From the NCBI GenBank assembly GCA_012271125.1, contig JAAXHB010000004.1:1-34703 (forward strand): 34,703 nt of DNA. Direction: 5' to 3'. The number at the start of each line of letters is the position of its first letter. Position 1 is the stretch's first letter. The stretch comes from Actinomycetota bacterium. GTDB lineage: Bacteria > Actinomycetota > Acidimicrobiia > Acidimicrobiales > Aldehydirespiratoraceae. Below, in pieces: positions 4,240 through 25,056 of this stretch. The notes beneath the pieces are model-generated. The model was not told the DNA's origin and did not search any database. It worked only from the letters and a program-made list of their open reading frames with translations. Made by a program: the position numbers and the translations under genes.

Positions 4240-4244
4240 GGGAA

Positions 4245-7843: not shown

Positions 7844-7846
7844 TGG

Positions 7847-8161
7847 CTATCCGCGCAGCAGCGAGACGTCATCGGCGGTTGCGCCGGCGCGTCGTCGGTT
7901 CAAAGCGACGACTAGGGCTAGGCCGATGACGACTTCGGTGGCGGCGACGACTAGCACGAAAAACACTGCGACTTGTCCGCCGACGTCGCCGAGTTCGACG
8001 CCTAGGGCTACGAATGAGATGTTGACGGCGTTGAGCATCAGCTCTACGCACATGAACATGACCAGCGGGTTGCGGCGCACCAGCAAGCCGGCGGCACCAA
8101 TGGTGAAGACGGCTGCGGACAGGATCAGGTACCAGCCGGTTGAGACTTCGGTCCACTCCAT
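7847..8161 (-). CDS. nuoK: NADH-quinone oxidoreductase subunit K
   Basis: A 104-aa protein with 3 TM helices and ELMLNAVN plus ATEVVIGLALVVAL. Its ATG shares one base with the nuoJ TGA (TGATG at 8159-8163). Confidence 0.92.
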   Translation of the reverse strand: MEWTEVSTGWYLILSAAVFTIGAAGLLVRRNPLVMFMCVELMLNAVNISFVALGVELGDVGGQVAVFFVLVVAATEVVIGLALVVALNRRRAGATADDVSLLRG

Positions 8162-8778
8162 CAGTCGGCCCCAGCCGGTTCAGTCGCAGGTTCGGCGGTC
8201 GGATCGGCAGAAGTCGCAGGCTCATCGGCTGAGCTGGGCTTGCGGGTCAACACAACCGCTCCGACTACCGCAATCGTCAACAGTGCCGCGGTGATCTCCA
8301 CCGCGAAGGCGTACTCGCTAAACAGGACCCGTCCGAGGCGTTCGATGTCGGTGAAATCTGAGCCGAGCCAACGTTCGCCGCCGACTTCAATATCTGACTG
8401 GGCTTCGCCACTTCGCCGTGCCCCGGACACAGCCCCGGCGCTAGCGATCACAGCAGCGATAACCGTGGCACCGATACCGGCGCACACGACTATTGCCAGA
8501 GGGCGCTGTCCGGCAATCGGTTCGATCTTGAATTGCTCGGCCTTGTCAACGCCCAACAGCATGATCACAAACAAGAACAAGATGACCACAGCACCCGCGT
8601 AGACGATCAGCTGAACCGCTGCCAAGAAATGCGCATCCTGCAACAAGAACAGCAGTGCCACACCCACAAGGGTCTGCACCAAAAACAATGCCGCGTGGAC
8701 AGGGTTGCGGCTCAGCACCACGCCAAGCGCGCCCACCAAAATCACGACCGCCGAAACGGCAAATACAGCAAGCGTCAC
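8161..8778 (-). CDS. nuoJ: NADH-quinone oxidoreductase subunit J (start uncertain; ORF is open up to 8937)
   Basis: Has the NuoJ core GVVLSRNPVHAALFLV...VQLIVYAGAVVILFLFVIMLLGV. The in-frame GTG at 8778 (VTLAVFAVSAV...) starts just before TM1, as in other NuoJ proteins. The longer form from the ATG at 8937 would overlap nuoI by 101 bp and add a basic segment plus a D9 run. Confidence 0.8.
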   Translation of the reverse strand: MTLAVFAVSAVVILVGALGVVLSRNPVHAALFLVQTLVGVALLFLLQDAHFLAAVQLIVYAGAVVILFLFVIMLLGVDKAEQFKIEPIAGQRPLAIVVCAGIGATVIAAVIASAGAVSGARRSGEAQSDIEVGGERWLGSDFTDIERLGRVLFSEYAFAVEITAALLTIAVVGAVVLTRKPSSADEPATSADPTAEPATEPAGAD

Positions 8779-8799
8779 GGCGTCACCGTCACCACAGGC

Positions 8800-8829
8800 G
8801 TCATCGTCGTCGTCATCGTCGTCGTCACC
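8800..8829. repeat. 12-bp tandem repeat (gtcatcgtcgtc x2.5), a GAC/GAT microsatellite at the nuoI/nuoJ junction
   Basis: gtcatcgtcgtc occurs at 8800-8811 and 8812-8823, then gtcacc. If translated in the nuoJ frame it reads DDDDDDDDD. Confidence 0.9.
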
Positions 8830-8836
8830 GACACAA

Positions 8837-9466
8837 CTAGTTCCACGTATCGGCCTCGGCTTGAGAATCCTCGCTGTCACGCACCCCATAACCCAGCTCG
8901 CCAGCCCACGCCACCTCGCCCACATAGCGCCCGTCACCGGAAGGCGAAGTCGCCCGCATCCAACCCGACGTCAGCGCGTCGTCACCGTCACGCCAATCCT
9001 CCCAAGACTGCTGGCGAGGCCGACCATCGTTGTCAACCACCAGCTCGTCCTTGGTGTAGACCGCATCAGAACGATTCGTAAAGGAAAACTCGAACAACTT
9101 CGACTCAGTAATCGCCTCAGTCGGGCACGCCTCCACGCACAAATCGCAATGAATGCAGCGCAAATAGTTGATCTCATACACATACCCGAAACGCTCCCCC
9201 GGCGAGACCGGATAATCCGGGTCGTTGTCGGCACCCCGCACATAAATGCACTTGGCAGGGCACACGCCGGCGCAAAGCTCACAACCGATGCACTTCTCCA
9301 TCCCGTCGGGGTAACGGTTCAGCACATGACGCCCATGAAGACGCTCAGGCTTGGCACGCTTGGTGTCACGCTTGTCGTTGGGATTGAAACCGCCCCGATA
9401 ATCAGTGGTGACCTTCGGCAAAAACAGCTGCCGCATCGTCACCGCAAAACCACGTAAATATCCCAT
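8837..9466 (-). CDS. nuoI: NADH-quinone oxidoreductase subunit I (2x[4Fe-4S])
   Basis: Has two CxxCxxCxxxCP motifs ([12 protein letters not shown] and [12 protein letters not shown]) and a conserved N-terminus ([10 protein letters not shown]). It carries a C-terminal extension of roughly 45 aa. Confidence 0.93.
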
Positions 9467-9467
9467 G

Positions 9468-10874
9468 TCAGCTCCCGTTTTCTGTGACGACGTCTACAGC
9501 GACGGTTTTATTTACGACAACATCATCATCTGCTTCATTAACAACAACATCTGCAGCGAAAGCATCGTCGGGGTTGTGACCGGTGACGACATCTGCACCA
9601 GCGGCGACAGCAGCAAAGCGAGCATTGCGCAACGCCCGCAACAACAACAACGACGCCACCAGGATCGCTCCCAACGTCACCAGCGTCACAACACCCAGAT
9701 TCCAACCACGATCTCGTCCCTCATCAAGCGCCACCAAATACAGGAACCATCCCAACGCCAACGGAATCAGCAACTTCCAACCCAAATCCATCAACTGGTC
9801 ATAACGGAAACGAGGCAGCGTCGCCCGCATCCACACAAAACAGAACAAGAACACGAACAGCTTCACAAAGAACCACACAAAACCCCAAGCCCAGGCAATG
9901 CCCCAACCAAACAAGCTGTCGGCCAGCACCGGACCCGCCGGCCCGCCGAAGAACAGCGTCACAATGATTGCCGACATCGTGATTGTGTTCATGAACTCCG
10001 CCAAAAAGAACAAGGCGAAGCGAATCGAGGAGTACTCGGTGTGGAATCCGCCCACGAGTTCCTGTTCGGCTTCGACCAAATCAAACGGCGGACGGTTCAG
10101 CTCAGCAGTGCCGGCGATAGCAAAGATCACGAACGGCACCAGTCCGCTGACCAGCACATTCCAGCGCGGGATGATGTCCAAATACCCTTCGCCGGCTTGT
10201 GCCAGCACCATGTCGTGGGTTGACAAGCTGCCAGTGATCAACACCACCGACGCCACCGCCAACCCCAGCGCCGCCTCATATGAGACCATCTGCGCCGAGG
10301 CTCGCACCGACCCGAGCAGCGGATATTTCGACCCCGATGCCCAGCCCGCCAGCATCACCCCGTAAACCGCTACCGAGCTCATCGCCAAAAACAACAAGAT
10401 GCCCACCGGCGGATCGGCGACCTGCAGATACGTGGTGTGGCCGAACCATGTGACGGTGCCGTCGCCGCTGGCAAAGTTGCCTCCCAGAGGCACCACAGCG
10501 AAGATCAAAAACGCCGGAATCAGCGACAAATACGGCGCAAGTTTGAACACGAACCGATCCGACGACGCCGGCACGAGGTCTTCCTTGAAGAACAACTTGA
10601 TGCCATCAGCGAGGGTTTGCAAAATGCCGAACGGCCCGGCAATGGTAGGGCCGATGCGCTGATGCATGCCGCTGATGAGCTTGCGCTCGAACCAGATCAT
10701 CAACATGACCGCAACCATCAAAAAGGCGAACGCCACCAGCACCTTGACAAGCACGAGCACGACCTGGGTGACGGCGATGTCACCGATCAGCATCGGATCA
10801 GCCTGCGCTAGTAGTGCTGATGGCTTCGACGCCACGAGCGCCGAAGCTGCTGACGACGACAACGACAACATCAC
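9468..10874 (-). CDS. nuoH: NADH-quinone oxidoreductase subunit H
   Basis: Has [20 protein letters not shown] and PRFRYDQLM. An alternative start at Met28 (10793) is possible. It has an acidic C-terminal tail. Confidence 0.92.
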
Positions 10875-10876
10875 AG

Positions 10877-13504
10877 CTACACCGACGGGGTAACTGTCAC
10901 AGCGGTGACAGACTCATCTGCGCTTATTAAGGCATTGGCGGGTGCCCCCGGAGCTGCCCAATCCAAAGCAACCGCGTCAATAGGCACACCGGCATCGGCT
11001 CGCAAGACGGCCTTGATACTTGAGCTAGCCGTTGATGACGTCGCGGCAACCTCAACAACGATGTTCACCGGCAGCTGCAACCTGTTCAAGGTGTCTGGAC
11101 TCATCCGCGCAATCGCTTCACGAGCCAAGCTGCGACTTGTTGGACAGTTCCGCAGCATCACACCATCGTCATACATGCGCCGTGTCGCGATCAGCAGCAA
11201 GCTGCTGTTGTTGATGGGCACCGACTTGAGGTCGGTGCCTGTGCCTGGCGATGACTGCGCTTCGCTTGTCACCGCCTCGCTATCCAACCCCGCGGCGCGA
11301 GCAGGCAACACCCCGTTGTTGATGGGCACCGACTTGAGGTCGGTGCCTGTGCCTGGCGATGACTGCGCTTCGCTTGTCACCGCCTCGTTATCCAACCCCG
11401 CGGCGCGAACTAGCAAAGCTCCCTCAGTTGAATCCAGTTCATTGCCGGCTAGTGGCGCGTACAGCGGTGATACTTCTGTCATCTCGGCGCGGACTTCCTC
11501 CAGAGAGGCAAAGCCGCTGCTGGCGATGATTCGTTCCATTAGCTCAGCAGCGATCATCCAATCGGCACGAGCTATACCCGGCGGTGTGACCTTTTGGCTC
11601 AGGGTGCTGAGACGACCTTCCAGGTTGGTGAAACTTCCCTCTGATTCGGTAGGCCCAGATGCTGCTAACACTGTGTGGGCGCCTAGCTGGGCTGAGTCGT
11701 TGATGAACATGTCAACAGAAACCACGTTTGGAATAGTGCGCAAAGCACTTTCGGCAAGACTGCGATCAGCGAAATCATTTAACGGGTCAGCTCCGAGCAG
11801 AATCAGGACGTCCAACTCGCCTGCCGCCCCCGACCCAAGAATCTGTTTGCAGCCGTTGCTAATGGGCATTGGCTTGGCACCGATGCCTGTGCCGGGCACT
11901 AAGCCGGCGTTGAGGGCACCGTGAATGTTGCCGCGACGCAGACCAGACATAAAGCGAACATTCGCCAGCTTTGATAGCTCCAGAGCAGCTTGTTCAACTA
12001 CCTCGGCGGGCTCAGCCAAAGAAGCTCGCCCTACGACAACTGTGACCGGACTAGAACCATCAGAGTTGACACCAGACAGCAAGTTCGCGGCCTCACGCAC
12101 GGCATCGACTAGTTCCGTGTCAAGGTCTTCCAGCTTCGCCTCAGAATCTCCTACCAACTCGACCAATGCCTTAGCAACCGCAGCTACTTCGCCCGGGCGT
12201 GGATGAAGCGACACCGCTGCCAACTCGCTCAAACCGCCGCCACATGGCGTCAACTCAATCAAAGAGACCCCGTCTTGGAGCACTGCGTGACGCAACCGCA
12301 AGTACAACGAACCCAGTTCTTCCTTCGGGTCGGGTGCCATCCAAATGACCGTTCCACCCGGTTCACATAGATCGTTGATGCTTGCCGTTGTCGAAAAGAT
12401 CAGCTCGGCTGCCAAACCGTCGCCGATATGAGCGTCCACATTGTCGGTGCCAACAACAGTTTTGGCCAGCTTTGCCCAGCAGTACTGCGCCTCATTAGAC
12501 AAGCGGGCTCCACCAATCACACCGATCCGCTCCGGTGCTGTCGTCGTCAGCAGCTCAACAACCTGACCCATAGCGGCGTTCCAGGAAACCTCGCTAAACC
12601 CATCAGCTGTTAGTGCTCCAGAACCCGTTGTCGCCGCACTCGATGGCGTCGTAGCTCCACGCTGGATGGGTGTGCGCAGCCGCTGTTGAGAGTTCAGCGC
12701 CTCAAAGCCGAAACGTTCCTTGTCGCTGAGCCAACCCCAGTTCACCGAGTCAGCGTCGACTCCTAAAAGGCGCACCACACGATTGCGGCTTGCCTGCACA
12801 CTTACCCGTGAGCCGACCGAATCCACCCACGCCGTCGAGGGTGTCTCGGTCAAGTCCCAGGGCCGAGCCTTGAACCGATACGGCACCGCAGTGAGCGCAC
12901 CCACCGGGCAAATCTGAACCGTGTTGCCCGAAAAATACGAAGCAAAGGGCTCATCGGCGAAAGTGTTGACCTCAGTGTGATTGCCACGCCCCATGAAGTG
13001 GATCAACTTGTCGCCCGCCACTTCGTCGGCGAAGCGGGTGCAGCGGTCGCACAAGATGCAACGCTCACGGTCGAGATACACGGTTTCGCTGATCGCAATC
13101 GGCTTCTCGAAATGGCGCTTCTCCTCGACCATGCGACTCTCGCCGGGGCCATATGCCATCGTTTGATCCTGCAGCGGGCATTCGCCACCCTTGTCACACA
13201 CCGGACAATCGAGGGGATGGTTGATCAACAAGAACTCAAGCACCCCGTCTTGAGCCTTTTTGACCTTGTCGGAATCGGTCGATACCGCCATGTCCGGGCT
13301 TACGTTGAGCATGCACGACGGCTGCAGTGCCGACCCCCGACCAGTGTCGACCTCAACAATGCACATGCGGCACATGCCGACAGAGCTCATTCGCTTGTGG
13401 TAGCAAAAGCGTGGGATGTAGACGCCGTTGCGTTCGCAGGCGTCGATCAGCAGCTCGCCGTCTTCGGCCTGGACGCCGACCCCGTCAACGGTTATGTCAA
13501 TCAT
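10877..13504 (-). CDS. nuoG: NADH-quinone oxidoreductase subunit G
   Basis: Has N-terminal Fe-S cysteine motifs (CYHKRMSSVGMCRMC, HPLDCPVCDKGGECPLQD, CILCDRCTRF, CPVGAL) and a molybdopterin-oxidoreductase-like body. It overlaps the end of nuoF by 4 nt. Confidence 0.93.
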   Translation of the reverse strand: MIDITVDGVGVQAEDGELLIDACERNGVYIPRFCYHKRMSSVGMCRMCIVEVDTGRGSALQPSCMLNVSPDMAVSTDSDKVKKAQDGVLEFLLINHPLDCPVCDKGGECPLQDQTMAYGPGESRMVEEKRHFEKPIAISETVYLDRERCILCDRCTRFADEVAGDKLIHFMGRGNHTEVNTFADEPFASYFSGNTVQICPVGALTAVPYRFKARPWDLTETPSTAWVDSVGSRVSVQASRNRVVRLLGVDADSVNWGWLSDKERFGFEALNSQQRLRTPIQRGATTPSSAATTGSGALTADGFSEVSWNAAMGQVVELLTTTAPERIGVIGGARLSNEAQYCWAKLAKTVVGTDNVDAHIGDGLAAELIFSTTASINDLCEPGGTVIWMAPDPKEELGSLYLRLRHAVLQDGVSLIELTPCGGGLSELAAVSLHPRPGEVAAVAKALVELVGDSEAKLEDLDTELVDAVREAANLLSGVNSDGSSPVTVVVGRASLAEPAEVVEQAALELSKLANVRFMSGLRRGNIHGALNAGLVPGTGIGAKPMPISNGCKQILGSGAAGELDVLILLGADPLNDFADRSLAESALRTIPNVVSVDMFINDSAQLGAHTVLAASGPTESEGSFTNLEGRLSTLSQKVTPPGIARADWMIAAELMERIIASSGFASLEEVRAEMTEVSPLYAPLAGNELDSTEGALLVRAAGLDNEAVTSEAQSSPGTGTDLKSVPINNGVLPARAAGLDSEAVTSEAQSSPGTGTDLKSVPINNSSLLLIATRRMYDDGVMLRNCPTSRSLAREAIARMSPDTLNRLQLPVNIVVEVAATSSTASSSIKAVLRADAGVPIDAVALDWAAPGAPANALISADESVTAVTVTPSV
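11207..11408. repeat. 108-bp-period tandem duplication inside nuoG (two 94-bp copies, 1 mismatch)
   Basis: The copies at 11207-11300 and 11315-11408 are identical except c/t at 11280 versus 11388. They encode AAGLD(N/S)EAVTSEAQSSPGTGTDLKSVPINN twice. Confidence 0.95.
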
Positions 13505-14991
13505 GTTGCGCCCGCCCCGACTGCGTCTGCCCCAACAGGTGCCATGTCAGATGAAATCGGATCGGCAAGGCTTGTGTCGGCAGGGTTCATATCTGCCGGA
13601 CTCGTCGCGCTAACTGGTATTGAGTGCCGGCGCGTGATTCGTGCCTCATATTCGTGACGGAACCTGCGAATGGTCGACACCACTGGTGCTACCGCGGATG
13701 GGCCGAGCGGACAAATCGTCGTCTGCTGCGGCGGAAACGGCACCGCTTCGAGCTCGCCGTGGGCTGCCACCGGATATGGCCCAGGCGAAATGTTGTCGCC
13801 AATGTCCAACAGCAACTCAATGTCAGAAGGCCGACCCTGACCGTTCAAAATCCGAGCCAAGATTCGCTCGAGCCAAGTCGTGCCCTCACGACACGGGGTG
13901 CACTTGCCGCAAGACTCTCGTGAGAAGAACTGCACCACCCGATGAGCCGCTACCACAGCGTCGGTGGTGTTGTCCATCACCACAATCGCGCCCGAGCCAA
14001 GCATCGAACCAGCCGCTCCCACGGGCTGCGCCTCGAGGGGCAAGTCAAGGTGCTCTTCGAAAAACCAGGGCGCTGAGCCGCCTCCGGGGATAAACATTTT
14101 CAGCTCGTTGCCGTCACGGATTCCTTGGCAGAAATTGTCGCCATATATAAGGTCACGAAAAGTTGTGATTCCATGCTCGGTTTCATACACGCCGGGGCGT
14201 GCCACATGACCCGACACGGCAAACATGCGAGTGCCCGGCGAGGACTCCGAGCCGAACTGCTTGTAGGCAGCTGCTCCGTTGACGAGCAGCCACGGCAGAT
14301 TCGACAAGGTCTCGACATTGTTGACGATGGTTGGCTGCCCGTACAAGCCAATCGCCGCCGGGAAAAACGGCGGCTTGAGCCGAGGCTTACCACGATTTCC
14401 TTCGAGGCTTTCGATCAGCGCCGTCTCTTCGCCGACTATGTAAGCACCAGCGCCGGTCGCCATGGTGATGTCGACAGAAAAATTCGTGTTGCAAATGTTG
14501 CGCCCCACATAGCCGGCTGCGTAGGCGTCGTTAAGCGCCGCAGCGATGCGCTCTTGTGCCAACGCCATCTCGCCACGCACATATAAAAAACACTGCGCCA
14601 AGCCCAGCGCATAACAAGCAATCAAACAGCCTTCGATCAGCTGATGCGGGTCACGCTCCATCAGCAGGCGGTCTTTGTAGGTGCCGGGCTCGCTCTCGTC
14701 ACCGTTGACAACGAGGTAGTACGGGTTTTTGCCCGGCGGCAGGAAGCCCCATTTGACACCGGCGGGAAAGCCGGCACCGCCGCGCCCGAGCAGGGTCGCG
14801 TCACGCACCTCGCTGTGGACGTCTGCTGGAGTGCGCGCTAGGGCTGCCTTTAGGCCGTCGTATCCGCCGGTGTCTTCGTAACGGCTCAAGGTGTGGGAGT
14901 CGTCATGGGTGAAGCGACTGGTGACAACCTTCGGGCCGGCGTTGTCGACATAGCCGGCTGCGTGGGACACGTATTGGTTAGACGACATCAA
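13501..14991 (-). CDS. nuoF: NADH-quinone oxidoreductase subunit F
   Basis: Has the GRGGAGFPAGVKWGF (FMN/NADH) and ESCGKCTPCREG (4Fe-4S) motifs, plus a C-terminal extension of about 45 aa. Confidence 0.94.
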   Translation of the reverse strand: MMSSNQYVSHAAGYVDNAGPKVVTSRFTHDDSHTLSRYEDTGGYDGLKAALARTPADVHSEVRDATLLGRGGAGFPAGVKWGFLPPGKNPYYLVVNGDESEPGTYKDRLLMERDPHQLIEGCLIACYALGLAQCFLYVRGEMALAQERIAAALNDAYAAGYVGRNICNTNFSVDITMATGAGAYIVGEETALIESLEGNRGKPRLKPPFFPAAIGLYGQPTIVNNVETLSNLPWLLVNGAAAYKQFGSESSPGTRMFAVSGHVARPGVYETEHGITTFRDLIYGDNFCQGIRDGNELKMFIPGGGSAPWFFEEHLDLPLEAQPVGAAGSMLGSGAIVVMDNTTDAVVAAHRVVQFFSRESCGKCTPCREGTTWLERILARILNGQGRPSDIELLLDIGDNISPGPYPVAAHGELEAVPFPPQQTTICPLGPSAVAPVVSTIRRFRHEYEARITRRHSIPVSATSPADMNPADTSLADPISSDMAPVGADAVGAGAT

Positions 14992-15005
14992 TTTGCCCAG
15001 CAGCT

Positions 15006-15617
15006 CTACTTGTCGTCAGACGCCGGCGGCATCCATACCGGCATTTTGTTGACAGCTGGATCGGCAGCACCTGCCACCCGCTGCGAATCAACCGACACAT
15101 GCACCTGCGACAAGGTGCCATGCCCCGGAATCTCCGACTTCAAACTGCCAGCGCGCAAGTCATCCAAAAGCTGATCAAAGCCGTCGTTGTCGATCCGGTA
15201 GCGGTAGCGGTAGTTGACCTGCAAGCACGGTGCCTCGGTACAAGCCGCAATGCACTCCACCTCATCAATGGTGAACATGCCATCGTCTGACGTCTCCCCG
15301 GGCGTTACACCAAGGCGTTCACAGGCATGATCTAAAAGCTCACGTCCGCCGTTTAGCAGGCATGAAATGTTCGTGCAAACGTTGACCAAATACTTGCCAA
15401 TTGGTTCAAAGCGAAACATCTCATAGAAGCTCGCCGTGCCCTTGACTTCAGCTGGTGTGGTGCCGGTGAGCTCGGCAATTTCCCGCATCGCGTCGTCGCT
15501 GACATAGCCGTCTTGTTCCTGCGCAAGATGCAGCAGCGAAATCAACGCCGACTTAGGCACCGGAAACCGCGCAATCGTCTCGGCTGCGCGCTGAGCGTTC
15601 GCTGCCGTAAAACTCAT
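15006..15617 (-). CDS. nuoE: NADH-quinone oxidoreductase subunit E
   Basis: Has a thioredoxin-like 2Fe-2S pattern (VCTNISCLLNG ... ECIAACTEAPC) and sits between nuoD and nuoF. Confidence 0.92.
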   Translation of the reverse strand: MSFTAANAQRAAETIARFPVPKSALISLLHLAQEQDGYVSDDAMREIAELTGTTPAEVKGTASFYEMFRFEPIGKYLVNVCTNISCLLNGGRELLDHACERLGVTPGETSDDGMFTIDEVECIAACTEAPCLQVNYRYRYRIDNDGFDQLLDDLRAGSLKSEIPGHGTLSQVHVSVDSQRVAGAADPAVNKMPVWMPPASDDK

Positions 15618-16945
15618 CTATCAACCTCGCCCATGATCGGGTCAACGGATGAAATCACCGCCACCCCGTCGGCGATGAGCCCGCCCGCCATCAAATGCGG
15701 CAGACATTGCAGGTTCACAAAACTCGGTGCCCGCACATGCAGTCGATACGGAGTCGAGGAGCCGTCGCTCACCAGATACACGCCGAGCTCACCCCGCGGC
15801 GACTCCACCGCGGCATACACCTCGCCGGCGGGCACCTTGAACCCCTCGGTGAAAATCTTGAAATGATGGATCAGCGCCTCCATCGAGGTGTCGATGCGAG
15901 CCCGCGGCGGCGGCGTGACCTTCTTGTCCTGCGCCCGATAATCGCCCGACGGCATCAACGCCAAAATCTGGCTCACGATCCGCATCGACTCACGAATCTC
16001 ATTGAGCCGAATCGCATAACGGTCATAGCAATCGCCGTGCGTGCCGACGATGACATCAAACTCCAGCTGGTCATATGCCAGATACGGCTCGTTGCGGCGC
16101 AAGTCCCAGGCATAACCGGCAGCCCGCAGCAGCGGCCCGGTAGCGCCCAGTGCCAGTGCCTCATCCGCGGTCAAAACGCCAACACCTTGCAGCCGGTCAC
16201 GCCAAATTGGTTGCCCAGTCAGCAACGTGTCGTACTCATCGAGGCGAGGATCGATCAGCTCGGTAATGCGCAACACATCGTCACGCCAGCCGCTCGGCAG
16301 ATCAGCCGCTACCCCACCCGGACGGATGTAGTTGTGATTCATGCGCAGCCCGGTGACCTTCTCAAAAAACCGCAGCACCTCCTCACGCTCACGCCAGCCG
16401 TAAATCATCATCGACACCGCGCCGAGGTCCATGCCGTTGGTTGCCATAAACAAAAGATGCGAGCTCATCCGATTGAGCTCACACATGAGCATCCGAATCC
16501 AGGTCGCCCGCTCGGGAATCTCCAGTTCAAGCAACCTTTCGGTCGCCAACGCAAATGCCAACTCGGTAAACAGCGGCGACGCATAATCCATGCGCGTCAC
16601 GTTGGTGCCACCCTGCAAATACGTGAGCTGCTCGCCGGTCTTTTCCATACCCGTGTGCAAGTAACCGATCACCGGCTTGGAACGCATCACGGTCTCACCG
16701 GACAACTCCAACATCAGCCGCAACACGCCATGCGTCGACGGATGCGACGGCCCCATGTTTAACAGCACCCGCTCGTTGTCAGCGGAGAACCCATCTAGTG
16801 ATGTGACTAGATCGGTGACACCTATCTCCGCGGCTTCGGCTTCCGACATTCGCAAAACCGCAGAGGATTCCCGCCCTCGCACACGTTCACTGCTGTTATT
16901 AACGACAACATCTGCAGCAGGCGTCATAGTCGGGCTAGCGCTCAT
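15614..16945 (-). CDS. nuoD: NADH-quinone oxidoreductase subunit D
   Basis: Has NMGPSHPSTHGVLRL near the N-terminus, RAPSFVNLQ, and a C-terminal DPIMGEVDR. Confidence 0.94.
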   Translation of the reverse strand: MSASPTMTPAADVVVNNSSERVRGRESSAVLRMSEAEAAEIGVTDLVTSLDGFSADNERVLLNMGPSHPSTHGVLRLMLELSGETVMRSKPVIGYLHTGMEKTGEQLTYLQGGTNVTRMDYASPLFTELAFALATERLLELEIPERATWIRMLMCELNRMSSHLLFMATNGMDLGAVSMMIYGWREREEVLRFFEKVTGLRMNHNYIRPGGVAADLPSGWRDDVLRITELIDPRLDEYDTLLTGQPIWRDRLQGVGVLTADEALALGATGPLLRAAGYAWDLRRNEPYLAYDQLEFDVIVGTHGDCYDRYAIRLNEIRESMRIVSQILALMPSGDYRAQDKKVTPPPRARIDTSMEALIHHFKIFTEGFKVPAGEVYAAVESPRGELGVYLVSDGSSTPYRLHVRAPSFVNLQCLPHLMAGGLIADGVAVISSVDPIMGEVDR

Positions 16946-17405
16946 TGGACGCTGCCTTGAACTGAACTGGAATAGCGCCGACGTCGTAATCCTTGCGAAG
17001 CGGATGCCCGTTCCAGTCTTCGGGCATAAGGATGCGGGTCATGTCGGGATGTCCGACAAAGTCGATGCCGAACATGTCAAAGACTTCACGTTCAAGGGTC
17101 TCCACCCCTGGCCATACATCAAACAAGGTCGCTACTTGTGGAGAGTCACCATTGACTTGGGTTCGCATGCGGATGCGTTCACCGCTGTCGTGGTTCAGCA
17201 GCGTTGCCGCCACTTCAAAACGCTGCGGCTCGATGCCGTCAGGCAGGTCACGATCAGCGTTGTAGCTGAGGTAGTCAACCGCGGTTAGGTCACTTAGCTG
17301 TACAAAGCCATCATCGCGGGCAGCTTGTGCCACCGTGACCCAGGAGTCGTTAGCAACATGGAGCACGCTTTGTGAGCCAACAACTGCGCCATAGCGGGTC
17401 TCCAT
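16935..17405 (-). CDS. nuoC: NADH-quinone oxidoreductase subunit C
   Basis: A 156-aa protein with EREVFDMFGIDFVGHPDMTRILMPEDW, the 30-kDa subunit signature. Confidence 0.9.
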   Translation of the reverse strand: METRYGAVVGSQSVLHVANDSWVTVAQAARDDGFVQLSDLTAVDYLSYNADRDLPDGIEPQRFEVAATLLNHDSGERIRMRTQVNGDSPQVATLFDVWPGVETLEREVFDMFGIDFVGHPDMTRILMPEDWNGHPLRKDYDVGAIPVQFKAASNER

Positions 17406-17983
17406 TAGCGGACTCGCTTTTTAGCCGGCGGCTGGATCATTCGTGTAGCGGTCTGTCCGTCAAGTTGCTCCACAATCGTCGGAGCATGATTGTCACCGCC
17501 ACGGCGTTGCAGCAGTTCGCCGCTTTGTATCTGATTGTGCAGCGTGAAGATGGCATGCATCAGCGTCTCAGGCCCCGGCGGACAGCCCGGCGCATACACG
17601 TCCACGGGCACCACCTGATCAACGCCTTGGACGATGGCGTAGTTGTTGAACATTCCGCCGCTTGAAGCGCACACGCCCATCGAAATGACCCACTTGGGTT
17701 CCATCATCTGGTCATAAATCTGACGCAGCACCGGTGCCATCTTTTGCGACACCCGTCCGGCAACGATCATCAAATCCGCCTGTCTTGGCGACGCTCGAAA
17801 CACCTCCATGCCGTAGCGGGCTAGGTCATAGTGAGCAGCACCGGTTGCCATCATCTCAATGGCACAACACGCCAATCCAAACGTCGCCGGCCAACAGCTC
17901 CGCGCCCGTGCCCATTTAACAAGGTCCTCTAGCCGGGAAGTAATGAAGTTCTCCCGCAGTGCTTCTAACCCTTGAGGTTCCAT
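17405..17983 (-). CDS. nuoB: NADH-quinone oxidoreductase subunit B (preferred start is the ATG at 17983; ORF is open to 18040)
   Basis: Has [25 protein letters not shown] and PGCPP. The ATG at 17983 shares one base with the nuoA TGA (TGATG) and follows a GGAG 5 nt upstream. That start gives an N-terminal length typical of NuoB. Confidence 0.9.
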
Positions 17984-18585
17984 CAATTCTCCGGCTTTCC
18001 GAACAGCAAACGTGTCGTTGCTGTCTTCATACGTTGCCAATCAAACTTCTTCGGACGCTCCCCTATGAGCGCTTCACGCGCAGCTTCTTGTTGTCGTCGT
18101 TCCTCGGATAGCACCTTCAGGACTTCCCGTGTCGGGCGTCCTTCCATACCGACTCGGCGAACCGTTGACGCCGCCGTGCGCCCTGTCGTTCCTAATGAAT
18201 CAACAGGCTGGGCCGTGGCTGTTGACTTCGGCCCCCACTCAAGCGCCCCCGCTCCGATCAAATACACAAACGACTCAAACACCGCAAAGGTGAACACGAG
18301 CAACGCCACCAGCCCGAACAATCCCAGCCCGCCACGAGCCACCGCGAAGGGATACAACACGATGATCTCAATATCGAACACGATGAAGATCATCGCCACC
18401 AAAAAGAACCGCACCGGAAAGCGTTCCGGCGTTTCAACGCTTGGGACTATGCCGCACTCATAGGCAGCGAGTTTGGCAACCGTCGGACGCCTTGGTGCCA
18501 GCAGCCCGGACGCCACAAAGCTCCCCGCGGCGAACAACGCCGCCAGCGCAAACAGGGCAAAAAGTGGGAGATATTGGCCGAGCAT
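17983..18585 (-). CDS. nuoA: NADH-quinone oxidoreductase subunit A with a C-terminal extension of about 80 aa
   Basis: Has YECGI and [10 protein letters not shown] with 3 TM helices. The usual end (GALEW) is followed by about 80 further residues in the same frame. Confidence 0.88.
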
Positions 18586-19676: not shown

Positions 19677-19692
19677 GACGACGATCTCCTGC

Positions 19693-20973
19693 TTACAGGT
19701 TCCGTTCGAACGCGACCACGGCGTCGATCTGATCTTGGGTCAAGGTCTCTGGGTAGATGACCCCTAGGTCGTCATCTAAACGGCTGCCAAATCCTGGCAT
19801 TTGCCCGTTGCCGCCTGAGCCGCCGCGACCATAGGTCTGTCCAATGCTTTGGCCTTCGCTGATGAAATCGGCCTGACCAGATGCTGTCTCAAATTGATCC
19901 AGCAGCGTCCCAGCGGTCAGGTTCGGTCCGAAAAATCCGCCACCGGTGCGATATTCGGGAATGATCGGCCCGGCGTGTCCGTCGATGGAGTCGTCGCCGT
20001 CAATAGCGGCATCAAATGACCAGCCATAGGTGTGACAGCGGGCGCAGCTGTAGGTGCCACCGGCTGCTTCGTTGTTGAACACGATCTCGCCGTAAGTCCA
20101 GTAGAGCTCGCTGCCTTCCACCGCACCGGCTGACAGCAGCTCCAGACCAGCGACTCGGATCGCTTCAGGGTCGCCTTCTAGGGAGTCGTCGGCCGCGAGT
20201 GCGTGTGAGCGGGCACGGTTGACGACTTCATCTACGGCACTGAGCCATTCGTCAACGGCACTGTCGTCGGAATCCACGCCCAAATGATTAGCGATTCCGT
20301 CACGAATGCCACCATCAACGCTTTCACGTAGCTCCGAGGCGGGCACCTGAATGCGACGCATGTAATGGATCAAATATTCGAGCTGTTGTTCGGTGAGTGG
20401 TCCGCCACCGGGGGCACCCCATGCCGGCATCACGTTGTTGCGTCCGTAGTTGAGGGTGTGCAACACCTCATCTTCGCTGAAACGTGACAGCACCGTGTTC
20501 AACGCCGGAGCGCTCCATGCCACGGTCGCCACGAAGTTGCCTTGGTCGTCGGTGATCGTGTAGGTGGTTGCGCCGCCGGCACCTTCCACGCCGTGGCAGG
20601 CCTGACAATCGGCACCTTCTTCGTAGAGCTCGCCGCCACGGTCGGCGAAAATGCGGTCAGTGTTTTTGACAAGGCCTTCTTGACGGCCTGGCTCGCCGAG
20701 CCAATACAGCGGCAGGCCCACGCCAACGACGACCAGCATGGCAAGGCCTGCGATCAGGGACTTGTCGAGCTTGGTGCCTTCTAGTTCAGTGTCCTCTAGG
20801 TATGGCTTGCGGTTGGCGGCGACTTCGATTTCGCTGCCGAGCTCATCACGGGAGGCATAGGAGTTGATGATGACATAGACGATGAAGCCGATGAAAACAA
20901 TGGCAAGGATCGTGAAGCCAATCGTGCGCTGCGTGGACGCAGCCAACACCGCAGCTGGCATTGTTGCCATCAT
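19693..20973 (-). CDS. membrane-anchored dihaem c-type cytochrome
   Basis: Has two CxxCH motifs (CQACH and CARCH) and two N-terminal TM helices (TIGFTILAIVFIGFIVYVII, LIAGLAMLVVVGVGLPLYW). It lies directly downstream of the Rieske gene. Confidence 0.85.
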   Translation of the reverse strand: MMATMPAAVLAASTQRTIGFTILAIVFIGFIVYVIINSYASRDELGSEIEVAANRKPYLEDTELEGTKLDKSLIAGLAMLVVVGVGLPLYWLGEPGRQEGLVKNTDRIFADRGGELYEEGADCQACHGVEGAGGATTYTITDDQGNFVATVAWSAPALNTVLSRFSEDEVLHTLNYGRNNVMPAWGAPGGGPLTEQQLEYLIHYMRRIQVPASELRESVDGGIRDGIANHLGVDSDDSAVDEWLSAVDEVVNRARSHALAADDSLEGDPEAIRVAGLELLSAGAVEGSELYWTYGEIVFNNEAAGGTYSCARCHTYGWSFDAAIDGDDSIDGHAGPIIPEYRTGGGFFGPNLTAGTLLDQFETASGQADFISEGQSIGQTYGRGGSGGNGQMPGFGSRLDDDLGVIYPETLTQDQIDAVVAFERNL

Positions 20974-20999
20974 GACAACACCCGCGTATCAGGCAACGT

Positions 21000-21023
21000 C
21001 ATCAAATTTGACATCAAATTTCT
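21000..21023. repeat. 12-bp tandem repeat x2 in the AT-rich Rieske/cytochrome c intergenic spacer
   Basis: catcaaatttga is at 21000-21011 and catcaaatttct at 21012-21023. Confidence 0.85.
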
Positions 21024-21030
21024 AGATGGC

Positions 21031-21894
21031 CTAGTGGGTGGCTGCGCCGATGCAGGCCGGCCCTTCGGCTTCTTGGCCTGTGGTGTTGGTGCCAATGGGC
21101 GGGCCTTGGATGATCGTGCCGGTGTCGACCACGAGCGATCCGTCGGTGGTGACTTCCATAGCAAAGCGATCCATGCCTCTTGGTGCTGGACCGGCGCGCT
21201 TTTCGCCGACCTGGTTGTAGCGAGAGCCATGGCACGGGCATTCGAACCATTGCGAAGTGACACATTCCGGCACTCTGCACCCCAGATGCGGGCACTTCTG
21301 ATACAGCGCAACAATGCCAGCGTCAAGCCCAAGGCGTTGCCCGGCGGTCATGCCGGCTAGCTCCGGCCCTGAATAGGCAGCCGCGGCTTTTTCAACCGCG
21401 CCGTTGGGGTATTCGGTCAGCCACATGCGTCCCTCGGGCTTGTACAAAAAGCCGTTGTTGTCACGAATCTCCGACAAGAGGTCACTCACGAGACCAACCT
21501 TGATTTTCGACCCGAACCCGCTGGTGCCTTGCGGCCACAAAAACGCCAGGCACGCCACGCCAAACCCGGACAGGCTCAAACCCATCAACATGACCGCAGT
21601 GCGGTTGAAGAACTGCCGTCGGGTCACGCCAATGGTCTCAGGGTCAAGGGGAACATAAGGCTCAACAACACCACCGGTGCCTTTGCGGGCACGTTCCCGG
21701 GCAGCGGCCCGCTCGACTTGCCTGCCCGTCAAGGGCATATCTAGCGCATCGAGCGAGACGCTGCCGCGGTCACGCTGGCGTGTCTCACGTGAGAGCACGC
21801 CAATGGCTTGGTCGGATTGACGACGACGTGCTGCTGCTAACACCGCAACCGCGGCAAGCAACGCCAAAGCGCCTAGCGCAATGTAAATCACCAT
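21031..21894 (-). CDS. Rieske [2Fe-2S] iron-sulfur subunit of a cytochrome bc/b6 complex
   Basis: Has CPHLGCRV and CPCHGSRYN cluster-binding boxes, an N-terminal TM helix, and a twin-arginine-like TRRQFF before a second hydrophobic helix. Confidence 0.9.
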   Translation of the reverse strand: MVIYIALGALALLAAVAVLAAARRRQSDQAIGVLSRETRQRDRGSVSLDALDMPLTGRQVERAAARERARKGTGGVVEPYVPLDPETIGVTRRQFFNRTAVMLMGLSLSGFGVACLAFLWPQGTSGFGSKIKVGLVSDLLSEIRDNNGFLYKPEGRMWLTEYPNGAVEKAAAAYSGPELAGMTAGQRLGLDAGIVALYQKCPHLGCRVPECVTSQWFECPCHGSRYNQVGEKRAGPAPRGMDRFAMEVTTDGSLVVDTGTIIQGPPIGTNTTGQEAEGPACIGAATH

Positions 21895-21992
21895 CGGTTA
21901 ATCACCCGACCTTGCCAACCACCTTTCATCGTGTCTCTCGGCGGCTTCGTGTATTGCGTCATCATTTATTCCTGTCTAAGACTTGTTCTGGC

Positions 21993-22703
21993 CTACAGCT
22001 CGAAAAAGAGCCCGGATTGCCACGGGAAAATGAAGTTGAACCCTGGACCCCTAAAGAACGACCCGATCATCACCAGCACCGCCCAAAACATCAAGTGAAT
22101 CGTCATCAATGACACTGCGAACTTGCGATCCTCAGGCTTCTTGGACGGGTTCTTGTCTATGTAGGGCGCAATCATCAACACCAGCAAGCCGATGCCGGGA
22201 ATGGTGACGCCTGCGACCATCGGGTGAAACATCGTCAACAGCTCCTGCAGCCCTAGGAAATACCAAGGGGCTTTTGACGGGTTCGGGGTCTGGTTGAAGT
22301 TCGCTAGCTCAAGCAGCGGAGCGTTCACAAAGATTGAAAACAACAGCGTGAACGCGGTGATGAACAGTGCGGAAACGAACTCCACGACCAGCAGGTGCGG
22401 CCAAACATGCACCTTGTCCTGGGGCATGGACTTGACATCTTGAATGGAGCCTGACTTGACAACGGTCAGCAGTCGCTGCGTATGTCCGTCGGGACCGGTC
22501 ATTGCCGGTTGTGCAGAAGCAGCCGCTGTCGCCGGCACTCCGGCGCTCGTGGCGTCACCGGCAGCTCCGGCACTCGTAGCGTCGGAGCCAGCAGAAACAG
22601 CACCAGCAGCACTACCGCCGGCGTCGTTGCCGGCTTCAGCAGCTGCTCTAGCTGCCTTGGCGCGGTCAAGCAAGTGTTGTGGAATCTTCGTCTCTTCAGC
22701 CAC
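21993..22703 (-). CDS. cytochrome b/b6 C-terminal domain protein (subunit IV / PetD-like) with a low-complexity Ala/Gly/Ser N-terminal extension
   Basis: Starts at GTG. Has PNPSKAPWYFLGLQELL (the PEWY-box region) followed by 2-3 TM helices. It lies directly downstream of the b6 gene. Confidence 0.85.
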   Translation of the reverse strand: MAEETKIPQHLLDRAKAARAAAEAGNDAGGSAAGAVSAGSDATSAGAAGDATSAGVPATAAASAQPAMTGPDGHTQRLLTVVKSGSIQDVKSMPQDKVHVWPHLLVVEFVSALFITAFTLLFSIFVNAPLLELANFNQTPNPSKAPWYFLGLQELLTMFHPMVAGVTIPGIGLLVLMIAPYIDKNPSKKPEDRKFAVSLMTIHLMFWAVLVMIGSFFRGPGFNFIFPWQSGLFFEL

Positions 22704-22757
22704 CGTCGTCGATCCCGTCGTCGTCGTCCTAGTCGTTCCTAATAGTCCAGCGACTGC

Positions 22758-23546
22758 CTAGAGCGGACCGGAGATGCCGCCGTCTTTGCGGACGCGCCAG
22801 AAATGGATCGCCATAAAGATCACGATCACGAAAGGCAGCATCAGCACGTGCAGCACATACCATCGCAGCAGCGTGTCGTTGCCGATTTCGACGCCGCCGA
22901 GCAGCACAAAGCGCACCTGGTCACCGAATACGGGTGTGTAGCCCATCATGTTGGTGCCGACCGTGACCGCCCAAAGTGCTAGCTGATCCCAGGGCAGCAG
23001 GTAGCCGGTGAATGACAGCAGCAATGTGAGGGTTAGCAGGATGACGCCGATGACCCAGTTGAATTCGCGTGGCGGTTTGTAGGCACCATGGTAGAAGACT
23101 CGTGCCATGTGCAAAAAGACGGTCAGCACCATGAGGTGCGCTGCCCAGCGATGCATGTTGCGCACGAGCAGGCCGAACGTGACCGAGGTTTGCAGGATGT
23201 AGATGTCGTCCCAGGCTTGGGCGGCGGTGGGGCGGTAGAAGAACATTAGGAAGATGCCGGTGACGGTTAGCAAGATGAACAGGAAGAAGCTGAGCCCGCC
23301 AAGGCACAGGGTGTAGCTGACTTTGACGGCGTGGCGTTTCACCTTGACCGGGTGGAGGTGGTATAAGACGCTGTTCATCACCACATATGAGCGGTTGCGG
23401 GGGCTGTCGGTGTAGCCCTTGCGGAAGATTGAGCCGGGGCGGAAGATCGAGTTCCAGGCTTGGGAGCTTTGGACCTGATCGCCGAGCTGGCTCATCTTGG
23501 CGGAGATGCGCTGCGGCAGTGGTTTGCGCTCTTCGGTGCTAACCAT
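22758..23546 (-). CDS. cytochrome b6-type protein (N-terminal four-helix, haem-binding half of cytochrome b)
   Basis: Has His pairs with 14-residue spacing (MHRWAAHLMVLTVFLHMAR and VLHVLMLPFVIVIFMAIHF), LCLGG at helix A, and a PetB-like C-terminal RVRKDGGISGPL. Confidence 0.9.
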   Translation of the reverse strand: MVSTEERKPLPQRISAKMSQLGDQVQSSQAWNSIFRPGSIFRKGYTDSPRNRSYVVMNSVLYHLHPVKVKRHAVKVSYTLCLGGLSFFLFILLTVTGIFLMFFYRPTAAQAWDDIYILQTSVTFGLLVRNMHRWAAHLMVLTVFLHMARVFYHGAYKPPREFNWVIGVILLTLTLLLSFTGYLLPWDQLALWAVTVGTNMMGYTPVFGDQVRFVLLGGVEIGNDTLLRWYVLHVLMLPFVIVIFMAIHFWRVRKDGGISGPL

Positions 23547-23962
23547 TATGCGAGCCTCATTCCGTAGCCGTAGCCGTGTGAGTTGGTGCGCTGATGCGGG
23601 TCACCGTCGGCGGGTGGCTCGACCATTTTGCCGAGGATAATTACCCCTGTCGGGCAGCGGTCTACGCACAGGGCGCAGCGTGTGCAGACGTCGTCGTCGA
23701 TGGTGAAAATGACCTTGTCGTTGGGGTCGATGCCAGGCAGTTCGGTGTCGACGGCATCGTCGATGGCGTCTGGGGTGACCATGAAAATGCACTTCCAGGG
23801 GCAAATGTCGACGCAGCCTTCGCACATGATGCATTCGGACTGATCAATATGTATGAACTGCTTGGGCTTGACAGCCTTTTCGAGCCAGTCAGCGTTGACT
23901 TCTTGCAGGACATAGTCGTCGCGGAACTCCGGCATCGGGGGATTGGCTTCGGTGACAGTCAT
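23546..23962 (-). CDS. 2[4Fe-4S] dicluster ferredoxin-domain protein, translationally coupled to cytochrome b6
   Basis: Has CIMCEGCVDICP and CTRCALCVDRCP and no signal or TAT peptide. Its TAA stop shares one base with the b6 ATG (TAATG, 23544-23548). Confidence 0.85.
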   Translation of the reverse strand: MTVTEANPPMPEFRDDYVLQEVNADWLEKAVKPKQFIHIDQSECIMCEGCVDICPWKCIFMVTPDAIDDAVDTELPGIDPNDKVIFTIDDDVCTRCALCVDRCPTGVIILGKMVEPPADGDPHQRTNSHGYGYGMRLA

Positions 23963-23971
23963 TTCGTGCGC

Positions 23972-24427
23972 TTAGCTCGCTTGTGCGCCTTCGCGGCGTA
24001 GCGGACGTCCAAACGTCGACAACTCCGGCGCCGGCTCAGCCTTGGGCTTGCCACGGTTTTGCCACATCATCCAAACCGCAATGTTGCCGGCAATAGCAAT
24101 TCCGTAAATGACAACGGCGATCAGGTCACGAATCACCACATAGGTAATAGTGAACGGGAAACTCCCGCCCTGGGCTTGGGCCTTGAGTACTTCGCCCGGC
24201 CCCACAAAGAGCTTGTCAGAGCGCCAGTTCAGCTCGTTGTCCGCCCATGCAAGCCACTGATGCGGCACCACGCCGTAAATCCAAAACAACAAGAAGAACA
24301 CAATCATCGAGCCAAACATGGCTTCGCCCCATGTCACCGGCGTGCCTGCCGGTCTGCGTTTCATGTAGGCCAGGATCGCCGCGGTCAACACGATGGTGAC
24401 CACGACAGAAAGCGTGAAAGCAACCAT
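23972..24427 (-). CDS. hypothetical 3-TM membrane protein, first gene of the Rieske/cyt b cluster
   Basis: The ATG at 24427 follows GAGGGG 5 nt upstream. A 9-bp gap separates it from the ferredoxin gene. Hydrophobic helices lie at about aa 3-21, 36-56 and 95-120. Confidence 0.7.
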   Translation of the reverse strand: MVAFTLSVVVTIVLTAAILAYMKRRPAGTPVTWGEAMFGSMIVFFLLFWIYGVVPHQWLAWADNELNWRSDKLFVGPGEVLKAQAQGGSFPFTITYVVIRDLIAVVIYGIAIAGNIAVWMMWQNRGKPKAEPAPELSTFGRPLRREGAQAS

Positions 24428-24997: not shown

Positions 24998-25014
24998 GGG
25001 CAAACATCACAATT

Positions 25015-25054
25015 ACACGTCACAGGCAACATCTACACATCACAGGCAACATCT
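25015..25054. repeat. 20-bp tandem repeat x2 between the mshA stop and the YbjN-like start
   Basis: acacgtcacaggcaacatct is at 25015-25034 and acacatcacaggcaacatct at 25035-25054. Confidence 0.9.
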
Positions 25055-25056
25055 GC

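Follow-up and report, generated by a model that had tools for sequence, protein, structure and literature searches.

A dicluster ferredoxin and a three-helix membrane protein as candidate n-side partners of a split cytochrome b6 complex in Acidimicrobiia

The DNA analysed here, called the window, is the whole stretch of 34,703 nucleotides (nt) from contig JAAXHB010000004.1 of an Actinomycetota bacterium of the class Acidimicrobiia (assembly GCA_012271125.1). Block 18645-24427 on its minus strand carries seven closely spaced genes. Four of them code for a Rieske/cytochrome b complex with a split cytochrome b. They are preceded by the genes of a membrane protein with three transmembrane segments (3-TM), designated TM3, and of a ferredoxin-like protein with two [4Fe-4S] cluster motifs, and are followed by the gene of a membrane protein of 343 amino acids (aa). 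The ferredoxin and TM3, candidate partners of the complex at the membrane's cytoplasmic face (n-side), are the main subject of this report. The genes of the block and of the operon behind it are as follows.

23972..24427, minus strand: 3-TM protein TM3, 151 aa; open reading frame (ORF) unmatched by Pfam or NCBIfam
23546..23962, minus strand: 2x[4Fe-4S] ferredoxin-like protein, 138 aa; ORF with Fer4 Pfam matches
22758..23546, minus strand: cytochrome b6, 262 aa; Pfam Cytochrome_B
21993..22703, minus strand: subunit IV (SUIV), 236 aa; Pfam Cytochrom_B_C, weak NCBIfam ExtQ match
21031..21894, minus strand: Rieske [2Fe-2S] protein, 287 aa; Pfam/NCBIfam and motifs
19693..20973, minus strand: membrane-anchored dihaem cytochrome c, 426 aa; two CxxCH motifs and two N-terminal hydrophobic helices
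18645..19676, minus strand: 343-aa membrane protein, family unmatched; ORF, Pfam, hydrophobicity, and synteny
2644..18585, minus strand: nuoA-N operon (complex I), complete, co-directional, and immediately downstream of the module; NCBIfam
8837-9466, minus strand: NuoI of the nuo operon, separate from the ferredoxin of the module

A sequence-only reading of this DNA had described six co-directional, packed genes, from TM3 to the cytochrome c gene. Their arrangement and coordinates were reproduced, and Pfam, NCBIfam, hydrophobicity, and motifs agree with its account of a 151-aa 3-TM protein, a 138-aa protein with two CxxCxxCxxxCP motifs, cytochrome b6, SUIV, a Rieske protein, and a dihaem cytochrome c. 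The conserved unit is larger than described there, as the 343-aa protein is its seventh gene and nuoA-N come next.

Genomes were scanned with one genome per species. At least 567 of them encode the ferredoxin, and the best 80 were taken for synteny and conservation. All 80 are Acidimicrobiia, with Microthrixaceae and Iamiaceae among them. The genes of TM3, ferredoxin, b6, SUIV, Rieske protein, cytochrome c, 343-aa protein, NuoA, and NuoB follow each other in this order in 80/80 genomes, to the limits of the contigs, and the 343-aa gene stands after the cytochrome c gene in every locus that is sufficiently long. Identical gene order in 80/80 related genomes far exceeds chance, and the TM3/ferredoxin layout appears to be standard in Acidimicrobiia.

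The junction of TM3 and ferredoxin, with a gap of 9 nt in the window, is a conserved tight one: the genes overlap in 45 of 80 loci and are at most 15 nt apart in 76. Translational coupling of ferredoxin and b6 had also been proposed, from the overlap of stop and start codons in TAATG (23544-23548). The overlap is confirmed, and it is genuine in the window genome, since homology of the b6 protein begins with the very first residues of its N-terminus. It occurs in none of 89 loci, where the median gap is 39 nt, so this overlap is peculiar to the window genome. Further down, the cytochrome c stop overlaps the 343-aa gene start in 35 of 68 loci, and the 343-aa gene stands 3 nt before nuoA in 32 of 66 genomes of Acidimicrobiia.

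The ferredoxin is found in the same place in more distant relatives. More than 2000 homologues at about 80% identity have generic names only. The family is narrow, with 158 representatives at E<1e-10, many of them fragments, among 1.84 billion representative proteins. The divergent full-length ferredoxins P0206, P0164, and P0183 (35-47% identical) are again encoded between a small membrane protein and b6, and two clusters of this divergent set are labelled Actinomycetota. In the long divergent loci L087 and L090, genes of SUIV, Rieske protein, a cytochrome c, and a protein of about 300 aa come after b6; these loci are surrounded by ccm/ResB and haem-copper oxidase genes, with no nuo nearby. 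Ferredoxin and TM3 are inseparable from the b6 gene across this deep divergence.

Mean identity to the window protein in the 80 genomes is 89% for b6, 84% for the ferredoxin, 71% for SUIV, 70% for NuoB, 67% for the Rieske protein, 57% for TM3, 53% for cytochrome c, and 52% for the 343-aa protein. As many as 76% of the ferredoxin columns are at least 90% conserved. The conserved stretches that hold no cluster ligands include the N-terminal ANPPMPEFRDDYVLQEV and the C-terminal HGYGYGMRL. Constraint over the whole surface would fit a protein locked in a complex rather than a freely diffusing carrier.

The CxxCxxCxxxCP motifs of the ferredoxin are at aa 44-55 (23798-23833) and aa 93-104 (23651-23686). 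The eight ligand Cys are all conserved, C93 nearly invariantly (one probably erroneous row in alignment A1) and the other seven without exception. An extra Cys58 (CPWKC) is invariant as well. The window sequence has no hydrophobic segment, RR motif, or export signal, in agreement with the earlier statement that the protein lacks a signal or twin-arginine translocation (Tat) peptide. Fer4-type matches alone were obtained in Pfam, without Fer4_20, flavin adenine dinucleotide (FAD), or NAD(P) domains. NuoI/NdhI and PsaC are similar in being small 2x[4Fe-4S] proteins on the cytoplasmic or stromal face that end or continue an electron wire, with weak sequence similarity; the window ferredoxin differs by a long insert between the cluster motifs and by conserved N- and C-terminal extensions. 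Its score against NuoI of NCBIfam is 41 (cutoff 113). A role as second NuoI was rejected: a NuoI is already encoded in the nuo operon, and elsewhere the module is found without nuo neighbours. Apparent fusions of TM3 with ferredoxin or of ferredoxin with b6 (P0131, P0151, P0173, P0142, P0158, P0222, and P0223) were read as frameshifted translations. A paralogue 52% identical to the window ferredoxin was seen on one contig only (P0140, L081 672-2784). Its first cluster motif is altered (CIQCGAGYGCVDICP), a 511-aa protein without family match follows, and a b6 gene is absent within 9 kb.

TM3 has three hydrophobic segments, and its loop 1 and tail are rich in K/R. From the charge distribution, an N-out/C-in topology is predicted, with loop 1 and the tail in the cytoplasm. 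The AlphaFold 2 (AF2) model has a predicted local distance difference test score (pLDDT) of 83.5, with helices at residues 2-24, 33-64, and 96-123. The tail carries the conserved C-terminal motif S-x-FGRPL (aa 137-143) and is of low confidence when modelled alone, as expected of a partner-binding segment. Foldseek of the AF2 model against PDB gave chance-level matches only (E>1), and a sequence search against PDB gave no match. The 581 homologues are all unnamed proteins of about 150 aa, and no fused TM3-ferredoxin protein is among the best 120. Strict co-occurrence, gene overlap, and the predicted topology lead us to infer that TM3 anchors the ferredoxin. In the 343-aa protein, a non-cytoplasmic domain of about 240 aa is set between two helices at the N-terminus and one at the C-terminus; the protein has no Pfam or NCBIfam match. 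Proteins of 275-341 aa occupy the place of its gene in L087 and L090, one of them with a weak biotin/lipoyl-like match.

The b6 protein matches Pfam Cytochrome_B with E 1.7e-46, and its best PDB matches are cyanobacterial and chloroplast b6 proteins (E 1.5e-48). The His of HRW, LHM, LH, and IHF are kept in the alignment to 2zt9 b6, in agreement with four His ligands for two b haems in helices B and D. C81 of the haem-ci motif CLGG (23295-23306) is aligned to b6 Cys35 and is invariant in 77 orthologues; this CxGG Cys probably binds haem ci in the window b6. The n-side N-terminus is 45 residues longer than that of b6f and contains W-x-S-x-FR followed by HLHP. The HLHP segment (aa 63-66, 23349-23360) is invariant, and HxHP is present clade-wide.

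SUIV has three hydrophobic segments and, in place of PEWY, the motif APWY (aa 145-148, 22260-22271) at the quinol oxidation site (Qo), conserved at 90% or more. A conserved n-side segment that ends in WPHLLVVEF (aa 101-109, 22377-22403) stands just ahead of the first helix. In an alignment by eye, its Glu is at or beside the SUIV Phe position that faces haem ci in b6f. In menaquinol users, Glu at the haem-ci-facing position of SUIV is believed to make haem ci a low-potential one. Residues 1-70 of SUIV (22500-22703) are a variable, low-complexity region rich in Ala/Gly/Ser, between a conserved IPxHLLxR start and the highly conserved GHTQRLLTVVKSGSIQDVK.

The Rieske protein has the boxes CPHLGC (21277-21294) and CPCHGSRY (21217-21240), which are kept in 69 orthologues, with CPCHGS.Y at least 90% conserved. 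Its first 120 residues hold an additional hydrophobic helix at the N-terminus, then about 65 cytoplasmic residues, and after these the Tat motif RRQFFNR (21601-21621) and a second helix. This layout brings to mind the Rieske proteins of other Actinobacteria that have several helices and dual Sec/Tat targeting. According to the rule of PMC4122944, its S-Y signature predicts a potential above 260 mV. The haem motifs of cytochrome c are CQACH (20593-20607) and CARCH (20032-20046); both are conserved, as are its MPxxG segments. By these motifs and matches, the core is a split b6 and SUIV with a putatively Tat-exported Rieske protein and a dihaem cytochrome c as the presumed high-potential outlet. 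The sequence supplies every component required to oxidise quinol at Qo, together with a low-potential chain of two b haems, probably with haem ci.

The reading of the core as a split b6 plus SUIV complex, and not qcrCAB, holds in Pfam and in NCBIfam, where scores are far under the cutoffs (b6 against QcrB 118.9, cutoff 500; Rieske protein against QcrA 23.6, cutoff 275). Actinobacterial QcrCAB shares with the window complex the phylum, the dihaem cytochrome c outlet, and a Rieske protein with one or more extra N-terminal helices before the Tat motif. It differs in QcrB, a single long cytochrome b that is not split and has no haem ci, and in its gene order and accessory proteins. Cyanobacterial and chloroplast b6f and the Firmicute/heliobacterial b6c complexes (QcrABC) have the split b, the haem-ci Cys, and SUIV in common with the window. 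In comparison with b6f, the window has no cytochrome f and has APWY instead of PEWY/PDWY; PetG/L/M/N were not seen, and no search was aimed at them. The nearest functional analogy in b6f is ferredoxin reaching haem cn in cyclic electron flow. There the ferredoxin is a transient soluble partner, whereas the window ferredoxin is encoded in the operon together with a membrane protein of its own.

The core is assigned to the APWY clade because of its split b, CxGG, APWY Qo motif, and S-Y Rieske protein. According to Kao & Hunte (2014, PMC4122944), this clade includes the split cytochrome b of Ilumatobacter (Acidimicrobidae) and carries CxGG, its predicted Rieske potentials are Mid+ to high, and no member had then been characterised. 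Subfamily G of Dibrova is the same group, and its short cytochromes b are noted in PMC5600118 to co-occur with large iron-sulfur (FeS)/NAD(P) oxidoreductases. The window shares with APWY/subfamily G the split b, CxGG, APWY, and a Mid+ to high Rieske signature. On these features the class of cytochrome b is one already described and the core is not new; the complex is best explained as a b6c-type quinol:cytochrome c oxidoreductase of this group. Reverse operation has been suggested in these papers for APWY/subfamily G and may or may not apply to this lineage. The available text of PMC4122944 and PMC5600118 does not describe a stand-alone dicluster ferredoxin or a 3-TM protein. Full-text searches of the literature gave no description of the ferredoxin/3-TM pair; earlier operon figures might show the ferredoxin. 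The claim of an undescribed respiratory module is accordingly narrowed: the cytochrome b class (PMC4122944, PMC5600118) and n-side FeS modules (PMC12954380) are known, and the ferredoxin/3-TM variant appears to be undescribed. What appears new is a stand-alone dicluster ferredoxin with a 3-TM protein on an uncharacterised complex of APWY/subfamily G, a group with n-side FeS modules.

A metagenome scan with the b6 alignment gave 80 loci, and the 71 with enough upstream sequence were classified as A, B, or C. A scan with the oxidoreductase P0260 as query found no loci. The ferredoxin and 3-TM genes, whose position 5' of a split b6 gene had been singled out by the sequence-only reading, were found there in all 80 Acidimicrobiia genomes and in 24/71 metagenome loci (class A). 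In class B (30/71), an NAD(P)/FAD oxidoreductase of about 600 aa, similar to GltD and with a C-terminal dicluster domain, is encoded 5' of b6; it is directly 5' in most loci, and a Rieske gene or a further gap intervenes in four. Class C (17/71) has neither the ferredoxin pair nor the oxidoreductase in this position. TM3 is present in 21 of the 21 class A loci with room for it and never in class B or C. The b6 proteins of class A form one cluster, and their nearest neighbours are oxidoreductase-associated b6 proteins. The CxGG Cys was found in each of the 22 class A loci with a correctly read motif (in the other two, the pattern matched another site) and is variable in oxidoreductase-associated relatives, e.g., it is missing from WGLGG of L096. 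The tandem repeat SIFRPG-SIFRKG (aa 33-44, 23415-23450) in the N-terminus of b6 is specific to class A; the oxidoreductase-associated b6 of L096 has a single copy (six-residue gap, alignment A2), and this is apparently also the case in classes B and C. The N-terminal extension of b6 was rejected as a ferredoxin-specific docking site, as W-x-S-x-FR and HxHP are present in classes A, B, and C.

The connection of class A to class B is also seen in the ferredoxin. In the search of 1.84 billion proteins, its top matches outside the family include the C-termini of the GltD-like oxidoreductases P0260 and P0267. P0260 is encoded in a cluster of b6, SUIV (also with APWY), oxidoreductase, and multihaem cytochromes, and P0267, from a Chloroflexota genome, adjoins a Rieske gene. 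P0299 is directly 5' of b6, SUIV, Rieske, and dihaem cytochrome c genes. Pyr_redox_2 and Fer4_20 are present in both P0260 and P0299. The oxidoreductase gene is 5' of b6 in L095/L096 and after SUIV, which has APWY, in L091. A hidden Markov model (HMM) of the ferredoxin family matched the C-terminal domains of oxidoreductases with 48-77 bits over HMM positions 32-118, and both the CPxxC feature and the long insert that separates the two motifs are found in the ferredoxin and in these domains alike. In GltD-like proteins, the flavin has two N-terminal clusters beside it, which must leave the C-terminal dicluster domain nearest the membrane. We infer that the window ferredoxin is the counterpart of this membrane-proximal dicluster domain alone. 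NAD(P)H formation cannot be its job, because the Fer4_20, FAD, and NAD(P) domains are absent.

Similarity to the elaborated complexes of anammox bacteria had been suggested before, and it is backed by the oxidoreductase gene 5' of b6 in relatives, the product of which ends in the closest dicluster domain outside the ferredoxin family. The comparison was made by way of the metagenomic relatives (L091, L095/L096, and class B loci) and not with anammox sequences themselves. The anammox complexes Kuste4569-4574 and Kustd1480-1485 were reportedly treated by Kartal in 2013 and de Almeida in 2016. They share with the window the split b6 and SUIV and, as predicted for the window, haem cN and a high-potential Rieske protein combined with a low-potential quinone. 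An n-side FeS module in the cluster and a conserved His-containing N-terminal segment of b6 are further common features (PMC12954380). In anammox bacteria, the NAD(P) oxidoreductase subunits co-migrate with their Rieske/cytochrome b complexes, and in AlphaFold 3 models a chain of four FeS clusters leads from haems on the n-side to FAD (PMC12954380). These models also predict an additional haem b between two N-terminal His, His43/His62, at the axis of the anammox b6 dimer (PMC12954380). HLHP of the window b6 is about where His43/His62 would fall, as placed without anammox sequences. The c-type partners of the anammox complexes are hexa- or octahaem proteins and their SUIV has five helices, whereas the window has a dihaem cytochrome c (two CxxCH only) and a SUIV with three. 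The window also differs in having a 138-aa two-cluster protein and a 3-TM protein, in its host from Acidimicrobiia, and in the adjoining nuo operon. Acidimicrobiia are aerobic as a class.

From the conservation of the genes and the homology of the ferredoxin, we hold it somewhat more probable than otherwise that ferredoxin and TM3 are fixed partners of the b6 core and form an n-side electron port on its low-potential chain. Quinol would be oxidised at Qo, and the high-potential electrons would pass by the Rieske protein to the dihaem cytochrome c. TM3, with its conserved cytoplasmic tail, would hold the ferredoxin at the n-side of the b6 dimer, where the two clusters would extend the low-potential chain (haem bp to haem bn/ci) into the cytoplasm. 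The complex would thus gain a second electron port, besides the quinone reduction site (Qi), linking it to a cytoplasmic partner. Menaquinone is the quinone of cultured Acidimicrobiia, and menaquinol as substrate is presumed from the lineage. As to direction, we lean to a quinol-driven bifurcation in which some low-potential electrons would exit to a cytoplasmic acceptor, because the S-Y Rieske protein together with a low-potential quinone would give a very low-potential haem bp, as argued for anammox; alternatively, electrons would enter from reduced ferredoxin towards haem ci and quinone. The specific proposal that the enzyme is a bifurcator, in which the second electron of menaquinol would pass by the b haems and the two [4Fe-4S] clusters to a cytoplasmic acceptor, or the reverse, is rather unlikely on present evidence. 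In such an enzyme, the high-potential branch from the Rieske protein to the dihaem cytochrome c and an oxidase would pull the second electron through the b haems.

Several points weigh against the electron port. A flavin/NAD(P) module is absent from the window cluster, where Pfam detects no Pyr_redox_2 or Fer4_20 domain anywhere, and no partner was identified for the clusters. The invariant CxGG Cys points to a functional Qi site, with which a further port would not be needed. The n-side extension of b6 is also present in 17 loci without an adjacent FeS gene, and the divergent homologue P0140 is not adjacent to any b6 gene. The AF2 single-chain model of the ferredoxin has a pLDDT of 51 (36-row alignment). 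Identity between the ferredoxin and the dicluster domains is moderate, 23-35%. A control, P0337, a GltD-like protein encoded beside a 2-oxoacid oxidoreductase and off Rieske/cytochrome b clusters, scored 43 bits with the ferredoxin HMM, in comparison with 48-53 bits for four cluster-linked domains and 52 bits for two relatives with unexamined context. Because P0337 scores nearly equal, the link to a module bound to Rieske/cytochrome b complexes depends on gene position no less than on sequence.

A different role for the ferredoxin would be that of a loose or soluble carrier, co-transcribed for co-regulation and perhaps serving complex I or another enzyme, with TM3 unrelated to it. This reading would be consistent with the module being joined to the nuo operon in Acidimicrobiia, with NuoI-type proteins as the best, far sub-cutoff NCBIfam similarity of the ferredoxin, and with P0140 being located away from b6. 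We consider it improbable, as the nuo operon has a NuoI of its own and L087 and L090 keep the ferredoxin beside b6 without nuo; furthermore, TM3-ferredoxin-b6 adjacency over 35-90% identity and full-length conservation, tails included, argue for fixed contacts.

About equally improbable is that ferredoxin and TM3 are biogenesis factors, which would, for example, keep the apocytochrome Cys and haem reduced on the n-side for single-thioether attachment of haem ci or would assemble the b6 core. Their genes are the first in the operon, ahead of b6, and the CxGG Cys is kept in class A and variable in oxidoreductase-associated relatives, as a maturation role would suggest. We know of no described counterpart, in non-phototrophs, of the CCB factors that mature haem ci in oxygenic phototrophs, so some factor should be missing from the known set, and TM3 is without a structural relative among solved complex subunits. 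Assembly factors are, on the other hand, rarely as conserved as the catalytic core, and the ferredoxin is nearly on a par with b6 (84% vs 89%). Moreover, its closest relatives outside the family are electron-transfer domains of oxidoreductases in the same gene position, including clusters such as that of L096 (WGLGG), whose b6 lacks the haem-ci Cys. Both roles, biogenesis and carrier, become less likely in view of how strongly the ferredoxin is conserved and of its homology to wire domains.

It is very improbable that the dicluster protein senses redox state or oxygen and, instead of handing electrons to a partner, tunes the complex through a gate on the low-potential chain or on the formation of supercomplexes. 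In favour of this, O2/redox sensing by [4Fe-4S] clusters is common, the window encodes neither a partner nor a catalytic module nearby, and Cys58 is an extra invariant Cys. Against it, the two motifs are canonical ones of low-potential type, arranged like those of electron-transfer ferredoxins and homologous to wire domains, and no DNA-binding or signalling domain was found in Pfam.

Automatic annotation of close homologues points to an ExtOPQ-type selenite/tellurite reduction system. The b6 protein scores 308.7 bits against ExtP of NCBIfam and passes the cutoff of 290 by 19, and NCBI gives a member of its 90%-identity cluster (1578 members) the name 'selenite/tellurite reduction operon b-type cytochrome ExtP'. 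We give this identification next to no credit, as SUIV reaches 48.4 bits against ExtQ (cutoff 150), the rhodanese ExtH, porin ExtI, and multihaem ExtKL/M/N/S of the ext cluster (PMC5877670) are absent from the window, the cytochrome c is of class I with two haems, and nuo genes lie alongside. The ExtP name is likely a systematic mis-annotation in Acidimicrobiia.

The electron port on the b6 core thus remains the favoured reading, and its genes stand in a wider transcriptional setting. The Rieske/cytochrome b module and nuoA-N form one co-directional block of about 22 kb (2644-24427, minus strand). Terminator-like sites were not found between the genes of this block; matches fall in coding sequence and occur at shuffled expectation. 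This suggests that complex I and complex III genes are co-transcribed in Acidimicrobiia, but not in the divergent L087 and L090. Upstream of the module, a YbjN-like protein and a GT4 glycosyltransferase are encoded at 24500-26379 (minus strand); they are syntenic in only the 17 closest of the 80 genomes and are outside the conserved unit. An 896-aa protein with an S-layer homology domain and then RCC1-like repeats is encoded at 32004-34694 (minus strand) and has no relation to the module.

As energy converters, Rieske/cytochrome b complexes are very well understood, yet hardly any biochemistry has been done on the APWY/subfamily G branch, whose n-side FeS modules are known mainly from anammox bacteria, which are difficult to cultivate. 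Sea water, soil, and activated sludge harbour Acidimicrobiia in abundance, and some members of the class are cultured aerobes. A two-cluster variant with a small membrane protein may therefore be a tractable system for the long-standing question whether electrons can enter or exit on the n-side at haem bn/ci, which is likewise at issue in b6f, for cyclic electron flow by way of ferredoxin, and in anammox, for the NAD(P)H production that has been proposed. The finding also flags an annotation error, by which these cytochromes b are named ExtP and assigned to selenite/tellurite reduction. If the bifurcation were true, respiration would directly make reductant at the level of ferredoxin; if the same wire ran in reverse, it would be a ferredoxin:menaquinone reductase built into the Q cycle. 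Either direction would be a mode of coupling undemonstrated for any Rieske/cytochrome b complex, here in a minimal form without the NAD(P) module.

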